Source: a virus
Lineage: Duplodnaviria; Heunggongvirae; Uroviricota; Caudoviricetes
DNA length: 5,564 nt
IMG/VR virus record: IMGVR_UViG_2681813234_000001
Coordinates: 1-5,564 of that record
Strand: one strand, 5' to 3'
Position 1 is the stretch's first letter, and each line of letters starts with the position of its first letter. The position numbers were made by a program, and so were the translations under genes. Below the pieces are notes generated by a model, which was given only the letters and a program-made list of their open reading frames with translations, searched no databases and was not told the DNA's origin. Of the stretch, positions 1 to 5,479 are shown one piece after another.

Positions 1-147
1 GAAATATTCAACATGCTGCTCATCTGCTTCACGGATGTTGTATCCCGGCTCCAGATAGATTTGCTCCACTGGCACGAGATAGGTTTTGTTAACAGCGATG
101 CCGTTTCGCGTTTCTTTGTCTGAATAGATTTTGCTTAGTGTTTTCAT
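1..147 (-). CDS. hypothetical protein, N-terminal part only (gene runs off the left edge); weak ParB-like N-terminal resemblance
   Basis: ATG at 147-145 (plus 'cat'), preceded by GGTGA about 8 nt upstream on the minus strand; open to position 1. Translation MKTLSKIYSDKETRNGIAVNKTYLVPVEQIYLEPGYNIREADEQHVEYF. Starts 1 nt after the stop (151-149) of the upstream gene, so it is the last visible gene of the leftward operon. The ParB-like hint (LVPVEQIYLEPGYNIR) is from memory only. Confidence 0.4.
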   Translation of the reverse strand, partial: MKTLSKIYSDKETRNGIAVNKTYLVPVEQIYLEPGYNIREADEQHVEYF

Positions 148-148
148 C

Positions 149-340
149 TCATTCACCACTTTCTTCCAATAATTGCTCGTAATATGCGACGTACTCATTA
201 GCAAGATAGTACAGGCGCTCAGCAGACTTGCGTTCTGCATTGCTTAAGTCACCAATAGACTCAATGTTGCCAATTGCATCAACACAATCGTTGAAGTCTT
301 GCTCCGTGTTACGGAATCTACAGTAGGACATGTTTGCCAT
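149..340 (-). CDS. hypothetical small acidic protein (63 aa)
   Basis: ORF-track ORF; ATG at 340-338 with a strong GAGGAG RBS 5 nt upstream on the minus strand; 2-nt gap to the upstream stop (345-343). 13 acidic vs 5 basic residues. No family recognised. Confidence 0.5.
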   Translation of the reverse strand: MANMSYCRFRNTEQDFNDCVDAIGNIESIGDLSNAERKSAERLYYLANEYVAYYEQLLEESGE

Positions 341-342
341 GA

Positions 343-603
343 TTACTCCTCACCACCCTGAAAAATGCCACCAAACTCTTCAACTAGTTCATCAATGCAT
401 TCGTCCGCCTCAGCGCAATTACCAGCAGCACTCAGCAGAATATCAACAGCCTCATCGTCAGGAATGTTGATTGCCGAGAAGAACTCAACAATGCACATTT
501 TCACAACCTGATATTCACCTTCTGTCTGGCAAGAAGCAAAACTGCAAGCGACTGCATCAATCAGCTTGGCTTTGTCATCACTTGGGTTATCAATATCAAA
601 CAT
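343..603 (-). CDS. hypothetical highly acidic cysteine-containing protein (86 aa from ATG 603; track ORF starts at TTG 633)
   Basis: The track ORF 343..633 starts at TTG. The in-frame ATG at 603-601 has an AAGGTG RBS with ~6-nt spacing and lies after the upstream gene's stop (620-618). Product MFDIDNPSDDK...EEFGGIFQGGEE has 21 D/E vs 3 K, no R/H, and 5 Cys. No family recognised. Confidence 0.5.
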   Translation of the reverse strand: MFDIDNPSDDKAKLIDAVACSFASCQTEGEYQVVKMCIVEFFSAINIPDDEAVDILLSAAGNCAEADECIDELVEEFGGIFQGGEE

Positions 604-617
604 TTCCATCACCTTTG

Positions 618-1088
618 TTAGTAAAAAAACCAATTTTCTGTTTCTTGGTTGTGTCCAAAGTTATATTCAATATCTGGCGTTGATGTATCAATATTCTTCA
701 TCCCATCAACAATGGTTGATACAACAGCCAAATCTTGTTTGATTCTCATTAAATGGTATTTCTTCCGGCGCAATAAACTTTCAATGGCAAGTTTCTTCGT
801 TGGAAATGCAAAAGATCTTTCTGCATTTTTTGCTACCTTCTTGATTGCATATCTGTTTATCTTTTTCTTCCATTCCTGTAACCACTGATTTGGTGCTGGT
901 TTTAAATCAACAACCCAATGCGCAGGAACCAACCATGCATAATGCTCTGTCTGATGAAAAGCTATATATTGAAGTGCGAATATTTTGATTCCATCTTCTT
1001 CAACTGTCGCTTGGAATCTCCAGAAAACAGGCATTCCATCATGTTCAGATTCTGATTCGGGGAATGGTACTAACCATGATTTATTCAT
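618..1088 (-). CDS. hypothetical protein (156 aa from ATG 1088; track ORF starts at ATG 1106)
   Basis: Track ORF 618..1106. The second in-frame ATG at 1088-1086 is preceded by GAGGTAA with good spacing, whereas ATG 1106 has no RBS and would sit ~16 nt from the predicted TSS. First gene of the leftward operon. Product MNKSWLVPFPESESEHDGMPVFWRF...ETENWFFY; no family recognised. Confidence 0.55.
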   Translation of the reverse strand: MNKSWLVPFPESESEHDGMPVFWRFQATVEEDGIKIFALQYIAFHQTEHYAWLVPAHWVVDLKPAPNQWLQEWKKKINRYAIKKVAKNAERSFAFPTKKLAIESLLRRKKYHLMRIKQDLAVVSTIVDGMKNIDTSTPDIEYNFGHNQETENWFFY

Positions 1089-1129
1089 CTTTATTACCTC
1101 TAACATTTATTGTTGTTTCTACGTCACTA

Positions 1130-1158
1130 ACTATAAACGCACCATCAATCTACGTCAA
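1130..1158 (-). promoter_or_regulatory. sigma70-like promoter for the leftward operon (TTGACG-17-TATAGT on the minus strand)
   Basis: Minus strand reads cctgTTGACGtagattgatggtgcgttTATAGTtagtg: -35 TTGACG (plus 1153-1158), 17-nt spacer, -10 TATAGT (plus 1130-1135). Predicted TSS near 1122, about 34 nt upstream of ATG 1088. Confidence 0.45.
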
Positions 1159-1205: not shown

Positions 1206-1325
1206 ATGGGTTCCACCAATTCGCCTTCTCGTTCACGCGCTACTGGCAACACCAAAACTGGCGGCAAAACTGGCGCGGTGAAGCCAAACGGCTCCACCCG
1301 TTCACCATCGCGCGGTAAGAAATAA
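1206..1325 (+). CDS. hypothetical 39-aa basic low-complexity peptide
   Basis: ATG 1206 preceded by AGGGGA about 7 nt upstream. Translation MGSTNSPSRSRATGNTKTGGKTGAVKPNGSTRSPSRGKK, stop TAA 1323-1325 overlapping the next ATG (TAATG). Codon choices (ggc, cgt, cgc, acc) look coding. Below the ORF-track size cutoff. Confidence 0.4.
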   Translation: MGSTNSPSRSRATGNTKTGGKTGAVKPNGSTRSPSRGKK

Positions 1326-2793: not shown

Positions 2794-3191
2794 TGCCAGC
2801 GAAATTAAGAGGTGTCCGGCAGGCTGTAGAGAGAACTTCGCAAATTGTGGATGAGATAATCGCCACGAAAGCTGTGCGTGCAATCAAGTCAGCGACATAC
2901 ATCATCCGCACCGAATCAGCCACGCTAACGCCAATTGATACATCAACGCTGATTAACAGCCAGTTTGATACCGTGGAAGTTAACGGAACGCGAATCACTG
3001 GCAAGGTTGGCTACTCTGCGAAATATGCGCTGTATGTCCACAACGCCAGTGGGAAACTTACAGGCAAACCACGCAGCAACGGTAATGGTACGTACTGGTC
3101 GCCGGGTGGTGAACCGCAATTTTTGACCAAGGGAGCACGACGCACAAAAGACCTTGTTGATGGCGCGATTAAGAAGGAGATGACACTCTAA
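2793..3191 (+). CDS. HK97 gp10-like tail-completion / neck protein (132 aa)
   Basis: ATG 2793 overlaps the upstream stop (TAATG). The pattern ...TLTPIDTSTLINSQ...GKVGYSAKYALYVHNASGK...PQFLTKG matches my memory of the HK97 gp10 family consensus (D-T-G-x-L ... YAxYVE-like ... FL-KG). Confidence 0.55.
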   Translation: MPAKLRGVRQAVERTSQIVDEIIATKAVRAIKSATYIIRTESATLTPIDTSTLINSQFDTVEVNGTRITGKVGYSAKYALYVHNASGKLTGKPRSNGNGTYWSPGGEPQFLTKGARRTKDLVDGAIKKEMTL

Positions 3192-3565
3192 TGAATATGC
3201 TTGAGCTGGTTGATGCATATCTTCAGGATGCCGGATTGTATGATGGCTGGACTTCGCAGTTGCAGTTCTGGAATGATACCGGAGATGGTAACGAGCAATT
3301 TATTGTCCTGCAATCAAACGGCGGCACACAGGTGATGGATGGCCTCGGCGGTGATTTCTATTTCTCGCTGTACGTTGTTGGAAAACAAGGCCAGTACAAT
3401 GTTGCTGATGTTGATGCGAAAGCCAATGAGATTATCGAATACATCAAGACGCACCCGATTGATTCATGCGTTAACTACATCCAGTTGCAGGCTCCGCTCG
3501 GTCGGCCGATGTTGACGGAAGAAAAAAGACCAGTGCATGAGCTTCTATTGCGGGTTGTGAAATAA
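3191..3565 (+). CDS. putative tail terminator protein (gpU-like position, 124 aa)
   Basis: ATG 3191 overlaps the upstream stop (TAATG). It is the last gene before the terminator and the major tail gene; size and position fit a tail terminator. The call is mainly by synteny. Confidence 0.4.
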   Translation: MNMLELVDAYLQDAGLYDGWTSQLQFWNDTGDGNEQFIVLQSNGGTQVMDGLGGDFYFSLYVVGKQGQYNVADVDAKANEIIEYIKTHPIDSCVNYIQLQAPLGRPMLTEEKRPVHELLLRVVK

Positions 3566-3567
3566 AT

Positions 3568-3594
3568 AAAGCCGCATGAAGCGGCTTTTAATTT
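3568..3594. terminator. bidirectional rho-independent terminator
   Basis: aaaGCCGCatgaaGCGGCttt hairpin (stem 3568-3575 / 3581-3588) followed by TTTTAATTT on the plus strand and by TTTATTTATT on the minus strand. It ends both the rightward neck operon and the antisense tRNA. Confidence 0.65.
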
Positions 3595-3670
3595 GGTGGA
3601 CACGGACGGATTTGAACCTTCAATCAGCCGATTATGAGTCGGTTGCTTTAACCAATTAAGCTACGCGTCC
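3594..3670 (-). tRNA. tRNA with anticodon CAU (elongator Met or lysidine-modified Ile2 type), CCA encoded
   Basis: Minus-strand read GGACGCG-TA-GCTT-AATTGGTTA-AAGC-A-ACCGA-CTCATAA-TCGGC-TGATT-GAAGG-TTCAAAT-CCGTC-CGTGTCC-A-CCA. Acceptor stem 7 bp (one G-U), perfect D stem, anticodon loop CUCAUAA with U33 and A37, T-loop TTCAAAT. Caveats: one A-G mismatch in the T stem and an A-C at the first anticodon-stem pair. G1-C72 is paired, so it is not an initiator. Confidence 0.6.
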
Positions 3671-4125: not shown

Positions 4126-4842
4126 ATGGCTATTTGTGCAAATGATAAAGGCGTTCTGGTCGGTCGCATGACCCGACTATTCCTTGCTGAAGGGTGCGGC
4201 GACGCAGTCCCGGAAGCAGGAGACTGGAAGTATTTGGGGTCAACCACCAGTAAAGGCGTTGACTACTCGCCGCAGACCACCACGTCGGAAGCTGATACCG
4301 CTGGCGGCTTTGTTTCCACTCTCGTTACCAGCTCTGATATGACCATCAGCGCAGAGGTTGAAATCCGCAAGAATGACCCGAGCGATGAGTTTGGTTTCCA
4401 TCGTCTTGTTGAGATTTACGCCACTGAACTGAAAGCGCGTCGCCAGCCTTCCTTGTGGGTGCGTGAGGTAACTGGTGCAACTATCGTTACCGCGTACTGC
4501 AACATCACTAGTATCAGCTACGAAGGTGGCACGAACGACATCGTTACTGGTAGCCTTGAGTTCAAGGTTTACGATTCTGACAGCGTTACCGTCGAAAGCC
4601 TTGAGCCTCTGGCATTCACTACCGACCTGCAATCAACTGGCAGCACTGGCAGCCCGTTAACTGTTGCTGTTGAAGGTGGCGTTGCTCCTTACACTTATGT
4701 ATGGCGCAAAGATGGTGTGGTTGTAGGCAGCGAATCTGGAGCAACACTGGCAAGCCCAACCGCTGGCGTGTATACCGTCACGGTAACTGATTCGTCTACT
4801 GACCCTGAAGTTATCCTGAGCACGGCTTGCACCGTATCCTGA
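4126..4842 (+). CDS. major tail (tube) protein with C-terminal Ig-like domain (238 aa)
   Basis: Track ORF; ATG 4126 with GGAG 6 nt upstream. Lies just downstream of the neck/terminator genes. C-terminal ~80 aa (LAFTTDLQSTGSTGSPLTVAVEGGVAPYTYVWRKDGVVVGSESGATLASPTAGVYTVTVTDSS) is an Ig-like (Big_2/PKD-like) beta-sandwich pattern typical of siphovirus major tail proteins such as lambda gpV. Confidence 0.6.
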   Translation: MAICANDKGVLVGRMTRLFLAEGCGDAVPEAGDWKYLGSTTSKGVDYSPQTTTSEADTAGGFVSTLVTSSDMTISAEVEIRKNDPSDEFGFHRLVEIYATELKARRQPSLWVREVTGATIVTAYCNITSISYEGGTNDIVTGSLEFKVYDSDSVTVESLEPLAFTTDLQSTGSTGSPLTVAVEGGVAPYTYVWRKDGVVVGSESGATLASPTAGVYTVTVTDSSTDPEVILSTACTVS

Positions 4843-4849
4843 CAAAGAA

Positions 4850-4877
4850 AAAGCCCCGAAAGGGGCTTTGTTTTATT
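4850..4877. terminator. bidirectional rho-independent terminator
   Basis: aaAGCCCCgaaaGGGGCTtt hairpin (GAAA tetraloop 4858-4861) followed by GTTTTATT on plus and TTTTTCTTT on minus. It ends the major tail gene and the leftward cassette, whose stop is at 4875-4873. Confidence 0.7.
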
Positions 4878-5073
4878 CTTGTGGTGGCTCTGGTGATTTA
4901 GCCCAATGGGTGGCTGGAATGCCGTGACAGCGGTCCAATTCACTAACAAACATCTTGCTGCCAATACTATCTACAGCTTTACATACCGCAGTTCTAACAA
5001 CACCGCGAAATGCTGTAAGAACCATCGCTCCTTCTTCCGGCATCTGATCACTACACTTAATCCACTGGATCAT
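4873..5073 (-). CDS. DUF551-like phage protein (66 aa)
   Basis: Track ORF; ATG 5073-5071 overlaps the upstream stop (ATGA). MIQWIKCSDQMPEEG...VLTAF...THWAKSPEPP matches the DUF551 signature as I recall it (WI-x-D-x-LPE-x-G ... HW ... PEPP). Confidence 0.65.
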   Translation of the reverse strand: MIQWIKCSDQMPEEGAMVLTAFRGVVRTAVCKAVDSIGSKMFVSELDRCHGIPATHWAKSPEPPQE

Positions 5074-5213
5074 ATCACCTTATCCTCATCAAAAATCACA
5101 CCAATCACACGAAGCAAGTCTTTCGCCATACGCTCTGCTTCTTCATAGTCGTAACCAGCATCAACATACAATTCAGTGTAGAAAATCAGGTCAGCTTTTG
5201 TTTGTTCGTTCAT
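5070..5213 (-). CDS. hypothetical 47-aa acidic protein
   Basis: ATG 5213-5211 overlaps the stop of the upstream Imm-like gene (ATGA), and its own stop TGA 5072-5070 overlaps the DUF551 ATG (ATGA). Translation MNEQTKADLIFYTELYVDAGYDYEEAERMAKDLLRVIGVIFDEDKVI (12 acidic, 5 basic). Below the ORF-track size cutoff; supported mainly by this double coupling. Confidence 0.45.
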   Translation of the reverse strand: MNEQTKADLIFYTELYVDAGYDYEEAERMAKDLLRVIGVIFDEDKVI

Positions 5214-5404
5214 TTCTTGTCGCCACTTTTAACCAGTGCCCAAACCAGTGCCGCAACCCACCCAATAAAGCTCCATCCGACAAGAATATTCAGTACGCAG
5301 ATTGCAGTCGTGTTTACGTGCTTGCGTTGCAGCGCCACAAAAGATGGAAGAAGATAAGCAAATATCACCAATCCAGCGAAAAGCAACAAAATAACAACAT
5401 CCAT
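5210..5404 (-). CDS. superinfection immunity (T4 Imm-like) family small membrane protein (64 aa)
   Basis: Track ORF; ATG 5404-5402 with GAGGTGA RBS 5 nt upstream. Two TM segments and the motif AYLLPSFVALQRKHVNTTAICVLNILVGWSFIGWVAALVWAL, which matches the superinfection-immunity small-protein family consensus as I recall it (YFLPSIIA-x-R-x-H-x-N ... LGW-x-IGW ... ALIWA). Confidence 0.7.
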   Translation of the reverse strand: MDVVILLLFAGLVIFAYLLPSFVALQRKHVNTTAICVLNILVGWSFIGWVAALVWALVKSGDKK

Positions 5405-5439: not shown

Positions 5440-5468
5440 AATCTACATCACCACCTCACAGGTGTCAA
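5440..5468 (-). promoter_or_regulatory. sigma70-like promoter, leftward (TTGACA-17-TAGATT), for the three-gene cassette
   Basis: Minus strand reads ggtggtgTTGACAcctgtgaggtggtgatgTAGATTcaag: -35 at plus 5463-5468, -10 at plus 5440-5445. TSS about 29 nt upstream of ATG 5404. Overlaps the inverted repeat GGTGT-ca-ACACC (5461-5472). Confidence 0.5.
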
Positions 5469-5479
5469 CACCACCGAGA

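Follow-up and report, generated by a model that had tools for sequence, protein, structure and literature searches.

A variable slot for accessory genes heading the early operon of a Skatevirus-type phage

The stretch of DNA considered here (the window; 5,564 bases, IMG/VR record IMGVR_UViG_2681813234_000001) comes from a tailed phage and is the complete contig LOOM01000014.1 of the Escherichia coli draft assembly GCA_001575535.1. Its best matches, which include Salmonella phage SeSz-2 (genus Skatevirus) and the E. coli phages ZCEC08 and ClaudiaMuster (Bas77 in BASEL), among others, are 88-93% identical to it across 81-88% of its length. Head-tail connector and tail genes are encoded in the right two thirds of the window, and the left fifth holds a leftward operon of four genes, which is the subject of this work. 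Comparison with related phages shows that the head of this operon is a variable slot for accessory genes, in which exchangeable cargo lies between conserved flanks under a fixed early promoter. Counter-defence genes are found in positions of this kind, among promoter-proximal exchangeable cargo, and a preliminary description of the window had proposed that two acidic products of the operon are DNA-mimic anti-restriction proteins. The positional part of that proposal stands, as the operon is early and its promoter-proximal genes are accessory and exchangeable; the DNA-mimic anti-restriction function does not (see below).

Organization of the early operon

Four leftward reading frames are confirmed on the minus strand. 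The first encodes a basic protein of 156 amino acids (positions 618-1088; isoelectric point (pI) 8.7), the second a strongly acidic protein of 86 amino acids (343-603), and the third an acidic protein of 63 amino acids (149-340); the fourth (1-147) comprises the first 49 codons of a gene for a ParB-like or KorB-like protein and is cut by the contig end. The genes are indeed chained, as had been described, but they are separated by 14, 2, and 1 nucleotides and not by 1-8 nucleotides. These values hold with the start of the second gene placed at position 603, as in relatives; a gap of 8 nucleotides is valid only for an ATG at 609 that is specific to the window. For the first gene, a longer frame encoding 162 amino acids could begin at 1106, but the ribosome-binding site belongs to the ATG at 1088. 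No terminator-like sites were found between the genes on the minus strand.

Comparison with diverged homologs gave ratios of nonsynonymous to synonymous divergence (dN/dS) of 0.01-0.05 for the 86-amino-acid gene, 0.10-0.28 for the 63-amino-acid gene, and 0.18 for the 156-amino-acid gene (versus HK97). Such low ratios in all three complete genes indicate purifying selection and argue that the genes are genuinely coding.

The operon is preceded by an apparent sigma-70-type early promoter (1130-1158, minus strand), which consists of TTGACG (1158-1153), a 17-nucleotide spacer, and TATAGT (1135-1130) and had already been noticed in the preliminary description. It is the sole match of at least 9/12 within positions 1-1500, and as a bare pattern it is within chance (shuffled sequences average 3.6). 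The promoter is taken as real because it is near base-for-base identical in Bas77 and in all IMG/VR relatives checked, although the gene downstream differs among them; the evidence is conservation in front of different genes and not the pattern score. It is followed by a conserved 5' leader of approx. 40 nucleotides (1089-1129, minus strand), ending in a shared ribosome-binding site (..GACGTAGAAACAACAATAAATGTTAGAGGT..). The same leader and ribosome-binding site are found ahead of at least eight unrelated first-gene families in relatives.

A variable slot between fixed flanks

The content of the region was surveyed in 79 IMG/VR loci, which were fetched via the ParB-like protein and in which the reading frames chained upstream of its gene were collected. 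More than 30 arrangements were found between the leader and the ParB-like gene, and ten contigs that encode an identical 63-amino-acid protein showed further gene combinations. The arrangement seen in the window, in which the 156-, 86-, and 63-amino-acid genes follow one another, was present in none of these 79 loci and ten contigs. Bas77 and SeSz-2 share with the window the promoter, leader, 86- and 63-amino-acid genes, and ParB-like gene, and lack the 156-amino-acid gene at the corresponding spot. Because the promoter with its leader and the ParB-like gene are kept across about 80 relatives while the cargo between them differs, even among close relatives, the region is best described as a slot in which accessory genes vary behind a fixed early promoter. 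All of the cargo families examined are without an assigned function, and one of them contains a DUF551 domain. Past the ParB-like gene, the operon continues in relatives with small genes, in some cases a DNA methyltransferase gene, and the gene for RusA.

The survey bears on the idea that the slot products assist the DNA metabolism of the phage itself, for example, by partnering or modulating the ParB-like protein, replication, or recombination, and are not directed at the host. The tight chaining with the ParB-like gene is consistent with this idea, as are the chaining with DNA methyltransferase and RusA genes in relatives, the very strong purifying selection on the 86-amino-acid gene, the basic nature of the 156-amino-acid protein, which is often a property of nucleic-acid binders, and the location of a distant homolog in the replication/recombination region of a Vibrio phage. 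However, many relatives keep the ParB-like gene without one, two, or all three of the slot genes, and a core partner would not be dispensable in this manner. Moreover, the same families occur in lambdoid phages that do not have this ParB-like gene. A role of this kind is unlikely.

The slot resembles the accessory regions and morons of other phages (Silas et al., bioRxiv 10.1101/2023.04.06.535777) in its conserved flanks and in its small, variable, and mostly uncharacterised cargo, which is exchanged both between relatives and with unrelated phages. Classical morons have a promoter and a terminator for each gene, whereas here one fixed promoter, leader, and ribosome-binding site would serve all of the cargo. 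The three slot proteins are absent from the supplementary files of the accessory-gene screen of Silas et al. Nothing in the region suggests a new principle: slots of this class (accessory region, moron-like) are ordinary and familiar, and databases already list all three families as hypothetical proteins. The new elements are modest and comprise this particular mosaic, the apparent capture of a lambdoid gene as a reading frame only, the link between the Skatevirus-type slot and the lambdoid ral slot, and a family label that looks unfounded (all described below). With its fixed promoter, leader, and ribosome-binding site and its swappable cargo, the slot forms a clean natural "expression cassette" in a group represented in BASEL, so that the cargo is open to direct experimental testing.

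The first gene and its lambdoid relatives

The 156-amino-acid protein, which was not recognised in the preliminary description, proves to be a member of the HK97 gp45/933W L0079 family (phrog_1636; E 4.8e-105, full-length match over 156/156 positions). It is 92-94% identical over its full length to proteins of HK97, H-19B, and 933W (92.3% to HK97 gp45), and equivalents are found in many Shiga-toxin (Stx) phages. Of 5,426 complete E. coli genomes, 598 (approx. 11%) carry the gene, and there the PGAP annotation of the product is always "hypothetical". In HK97 and 933W, which are temperate lambdoid phages, the gene is the first after N in the pL operon, whereas in the window it heads an early operon of the Skatevirus type.

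In a three-way alignment of the window, Bas77, and HK97, the DNA likeness to HK97 spans exactly the interval from the ATG to the stop codon. The nucleotide identity between the gene and the copies in Stx/HK97-type prophages is 94%. The insertion point lies within the ribosome-binding site of the leader, and this site reappears ahead of the 86-amino-acid gene. Among Skatevirus-type phages, a version of the gene was found only in Bas81 and NX263, where it is the sole gene of the slot and its product is approx. 62% identical to that of the window. Taken together, these comparisons indicate that the gene was obtained from, or exchanged with, lambdoid prophages. The capture or exchange would not be very recent because the synonymous divergence amounts to 0.19.

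The family itself offers no clue to function. A profile search of 1.84 billion representatives widened it to 83 relatives of 130-170 amino acids, in which no Pfam domain was found and all PHROG matches were to entries of "unknown function"; literature searches on HK97 gp45 and 933W L0079 yielded no functional study. The predicted structure of the 156-amino-acid protein is poor, with a predicted local distance difference test (pLDDT) score of only 52.5.

The 86-amino-acid acidic protein

The product of the second gene (phrog_14587; E 1.2e-46, residues 1-82 over all 82 profile positions) is the most acidic of the window. It contains 21 aspartate or glutamate residues, 3 lysines, no arginine, and 5 cysteines (net charge -18; pI 4.05), which agrees exactly with the counts given before, as do the 13 acidic and 5 basic residues of the 63-amino-acid protein. 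An AlphaFold model of fair confidence (pLDDT 81.7) consists of four helices arranged as a predicted bundle. The family is small, with 18 homolog clusters. Homologs of 82 amino acids with 42% identity are encoded by the lambdoid phages HK446 (HK446_036), ECP1 (ECP1_057), and Kapi1, where the genes are located between N and cIII, the position at which lambda holds ral, sieB, and ea10.

In an alignment of 16 close homologs, the invariant acidic residues are D5, E40, E51, D67, D71, E72, and E75; in the wider superfamily, only E40, D67, and D71 remain invariant among the acidic residues. A role of the five cysteines as a metal site was considered and rejected, as C25 and C37 are invariant in close homologs, C25 alone is invariant superfamily-wide, and C64 and C69 vary. 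Literature searches on phrog_14587 and on a peptide of the 86-amino-acid protein found no functional study. In some relatives, a paralog of 74 amino acids is encoded downstream of the ParB-like gene (SeSz-2 gp60; L002, 2114-2338). SeSz-2 gp60 matches phrog_14587 at E 9e-8 and has Foldseek TM-scores of 0.73-0.84. The location of this paralog beyond the ParB-like gene points to a second variable stretch of the operon and to duplication of the family within these phages.

As the gp45 and 86-amino-acid families are common to the Skatevirus-type slot and the lambdoid N-cIII ("ral") slot, the same two families appear to move between both phage groups. In the lambdoid pL operon, the N-cIII segment carries both families right after the early promoter and N, and the position in the window is analogous, the genes being the first behind an early promoter. 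Nevertheless, the two settings differ: the slot proteins have no sequence relation to Ral, SieB, or Ea10, the group to which the window phage belongs has been isolated as lytic siphophages, and the N/nut system is absent from the region. The slot families are thus shared by lytic siphophages and the lambdoid ral slot, and one of them is carried by approx. 11% of the complete genomes of E. coli as well as by Shiga-toxin phages, which makes their function worth finding.

The shared location also brings up an alternative, namely that the genes serve competition between phages (superinfection exclusion or prophage interference) in a sieB-like manner. The gp45 and 86-amino-acid families occupy the very region that holds sieB in lambda, the 156-amino-acid gene is shared with prophages of E. 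coli, which would be competitors, and a second accessory cassette of the window includes a gene for superinfection immunity (PF14373). Conversely, none of the three products has a membrane segment or belongs to a known exclusion family (Pfam, PHROGs, PADLOC), and in lambdoid phages the genes lie in the lytic pL transcript and not in a unit expressed in lysogens. On balance, a competitive role is unlikely.

The anti-restriction annotation

The phrog_14587 family is labelled "anti-restriction protein" in PHROGs and in RefSeq and Pharokka-style annotation, and the preliminary description arrived at a similar view on its own grounds, according to which the 86- and 63-amino-acid proteins would be DNA mimics with Ocr- or ArdA-like properties, directed against type I (and type III) restriction enzymes. 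The product of T7 gene 0.3, Ocr, which inhibits type I enzymes by mimicking DNA, is likewise a small, early, and promoter-proximal product. Moreover, the 86-amino-acid protein approaches it in charge per residue (-0.209 vs. -0.239 for Ocr) and has the same computed pI (4.05), so that in composition it shows the high negative-charge density of Ocr/ArdA-type mimics. The presence of a homolog in the lambdoid ral slot also speaks for this reading.

The likeness to Ocr ends with charge density. A Pfam-A scan of both acidic proteins (E <= 1) gave no match to the ocr (PF08684) or Ral (PF11058) profiles, which readily detected the positive controls run against the same library (T7 Ocr, E 1.3e-64; lambda Ral, E 1.6e-48). 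ArdA (PF07275) and ArdB/KlcA (PF03230) were not listed for any of the four products in the Pfam-A scan at the same threshold, the controls covering the Ocr and Ral profiles. Profile-profile alignment to Ocr with hhalign gave probabilities of 0.3% for the 86-amino-acid family and 1.6% for the 63-amino-acid family. The 86-amino-acid protein is equally distant from Ral (hhalign, 0.1%; BLASTP, E 16), and its HK446 homolog also has no Pfam Ral match. A fold search with its model, a generic four-helix bundle, returned no match to a solved DNA mimic, and no PDB entry was matched by sequence at an E value below 0.2. None of the four products had a significant match in scans against Pfam, NCBIfam, and PADLOC, the best PADLOC hit being a Cas1 fragment (E 0.003) that was treated as noise. 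The profile and structure searches suggested in the preliminary description have thus tied neither acidic protein to a known anti-restriction family, nor the 86-amino-acid model to a DNA-mimic fold.

Published plating data for Bas77, from the paper on the completion of BASEL, are the strongest evidence against the anti-restriction reading. The Bas77 copies of the acidic proteins are nearly identical to those of the window (85/86 residues for the 86-amino-acid protein and 60/63 for the 63-amino-acid protein), and yet type I, II, and III systems reduce the plating of this phage about 10- to 10^7-fold (PMC11990801). In particular, its plating is 0.04-0.08 with EcoKI (one genomic site; 12- to 25-fold restriction) and 6e-4 to 1e-3 with EcoCFT_I (two sites; about 1,000-fold), 3e-5 with EcoRI and 1e-7 to 5e-7 with EcoRV, and 1e-6 with EcoCFT_II and 1e-5 with EcoPI, type III restriction amounting to 1e5- to 1e6-fold (PMC11990801 and its S1 Data). 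Bas77 was restricted by all six systems tested, and AntiDefenseFinder lists nothing for it (PMC11990801). Another phage, Bas106, has been described as highly sensitive to restriction-modification and as having no predictable anti-restriction functions (PMC11990801); it carries a 93%-identical 156-amino-acid gene. Because Bas77 is restricted despite its near-identical copies of both acidic proteins, it is very unlikely that these proteins inhibit type I and III enzymes generally in the manner of Ocr or ArdA.

As for the origin of the family label, the sole depositor-given name found behind it is "antirestriction protein ral", which was assigned to ECP1_057, a protein encoded where lambda has ral but without similarity to Ral. 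The label most likely goes back to this name, and no experimental or homology basis for it was found. Through PHROGs, Pharokka, and RefSeq, it has now spread to dozens of phage genomes. As its only source found is an unsupported depositor name and published plating contradicts it, the label is misleading, for example, in the choice of therapeutic phages and in the mining of genomes for counter-defence genes.

Possible functions of the slot products

The reading that is considered probable is that a conserved early operon of a Skatevirus-type siphophage has its variable head in this region and that the slot products are early accessory binders rather than classical restriction inhibitors. A promoter for the host RNA polymerase and a fixed leader with a ribosome-binding site would drive the slot, with the ParB-like gene next in line. 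The cargo in the window would then comprise three unrelated genes, encoding an HK97 gp45 homolog, an acidic protein predicted to form a four-helix bundle, and a small acidic protein with a conserved motif. Their role as early accessory effectors is inferred from the promoter-proximal signals, the dispensability of the genes, their exchange across phage groups, the residence of the families between N and cIII, and purifying selection. The products would act early, as stoichiometric binders of proteins of the host or of rival phages. In particular, the 86-amino-acid protein would cover a basic, nucleic-acid-binding surface, which is the most probable class of target because of its conserved acidic residues, E40, D67, and D71 being invariant superfamily-wide. 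Given the full restriction of Bas77, which has near-identical copies, a classical restriction enzyme of type I, II, or III is probably not the target. The strong constraint on the 86-amino-acid protein would fit a conserved host target. Counter-defence against systems other than restriction is ranked ahead of both competition between phages and a partner role for the ParB-like protein.

Several points weigh against the early-binder reading. Its functional part (binders, host takeover, and counter-defence) has position, variability, and charge as its whole basis. The dN/dS of the 86-amino-acid gene contrasts with the rapid evolution that counter-defence genes often show, and such a low value could point to a housekeeping partner role. 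The fold of the 156-amino-acid protein is unreadable at the pLDDT obtained. The restriction data concern a sister phage, Bas77, on E. coli K-12 and cover six systems, and support for the promoter consists of a consensus match and conservation.

A more specific proposal, which can be put forward only tentatively, is that the 86-amino-acid protein represents a new nucleic-acid-mimic inhibitor shared by Skatevirus-type and lambdoid phages, directed at a conserved DNA-binding machine of the host or at a defence system other than restriction, and that the gp45-family and 63-amino-acid proteins are further early effectors. Such a mimic would account both for the constraint on the 86-amino-acid protein and for its failure to relieve restriction.

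The 63-amino-acid protein, the ParB-like gene, and the repeats

The 63-amino-acid protein (phrog_8760, 33 clusters) has a net charge of -8 and a pI of 4.23. Its acidity is unexceptional, as a 47-amino-acid product encoded at 5070-5213 is more acidic per residue. In this family, the N-terminal motif MANM.YC.FRNT..D...C is invariant and the acidic tail is variable. The exact sequence of the protein occurs on 118 contigs in many differing slot arrangements. The possibility that the 86- and 63-amino-acid proteins form an obligate pair was rejected, as each is found without the other.

The truncated last gene had been described as weakly ParB-like, and this assignment is upheld. Its 49-residue product matches phrog_1033 (E 1.1e-9) and agrees at all positions with the N-terminus of Bas77_0045, a protein of 269 amino acids with the Pfam domains HTH_ParB (E 2.5e-11) and KorB (E 4.5e-6), both of which lie beyond the contig end of the window. 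The Pfam ParBc domain was not detected.

The promoter region contains two exact copies of TGACGTAGA on the minus strand (1149-1157 and 1118-1126, spanning 1118-1157), one over the -35 element and one just past the -10 element. With up to one mismatch allowed, there are 3 matches against 0.9 expected, and 9 of 200 shuffled sequences reach 3. The pair is kept in relatives, and the repeats may be a candidate operator, for example, for the KorB/ParB-like protein.

Other features of the window

Because the window is one complete contig, the Skatevirus-type phage of approx. 46 kb lies in pieces in GCA_001575535.1, as contamination or as a phage that the isolate carries. Divergent from the leftward promoter, the first rightward gene (1206-1325, plus strand) is a reading frame of 39 amino acids, MGSTNSPSRSRATGNTKTGGKTGAVKPNGSTRSPSRGKK, whose product is very basic and rich in serine, threonine, and glycine. 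The frame is conserved, and it is annotated as a gene in Bas77, Bas81, NX263, and several metagenome contigs.

Further to the right, a tRNA gene with the anticodon CAU (Met or Ile2 type) is located at 3594-3670 on the minus strand (ARAGORN call; Rfam, 63 bits). It is the only gene in the interval that separates the tail-terminator gene (3191-3565) from the major tail gene (4126-4842). In relatives, a tRNA-Ile or tRNA-Met is annotated under the match to the window, the exact position not having been compared.

A second leftward accessory cassette is found inside the tail module (4873-5404, minus strand), and its versions differ among relatives. In the window, it encodes a superinfection-immunity protein of 64 amino acids (PF14373), an acidic protein of 47 amino acids (net charge -7), and a DUF551 protein of 66 amino acids. 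A promoter-like sequence, TTGACA-17-TAGATT, lies upstream of this cassette near 5440-5470, and a one-mismatch copy of TGACGTAGA (5442-5450, minus strand) overlaps its putative -10 element.

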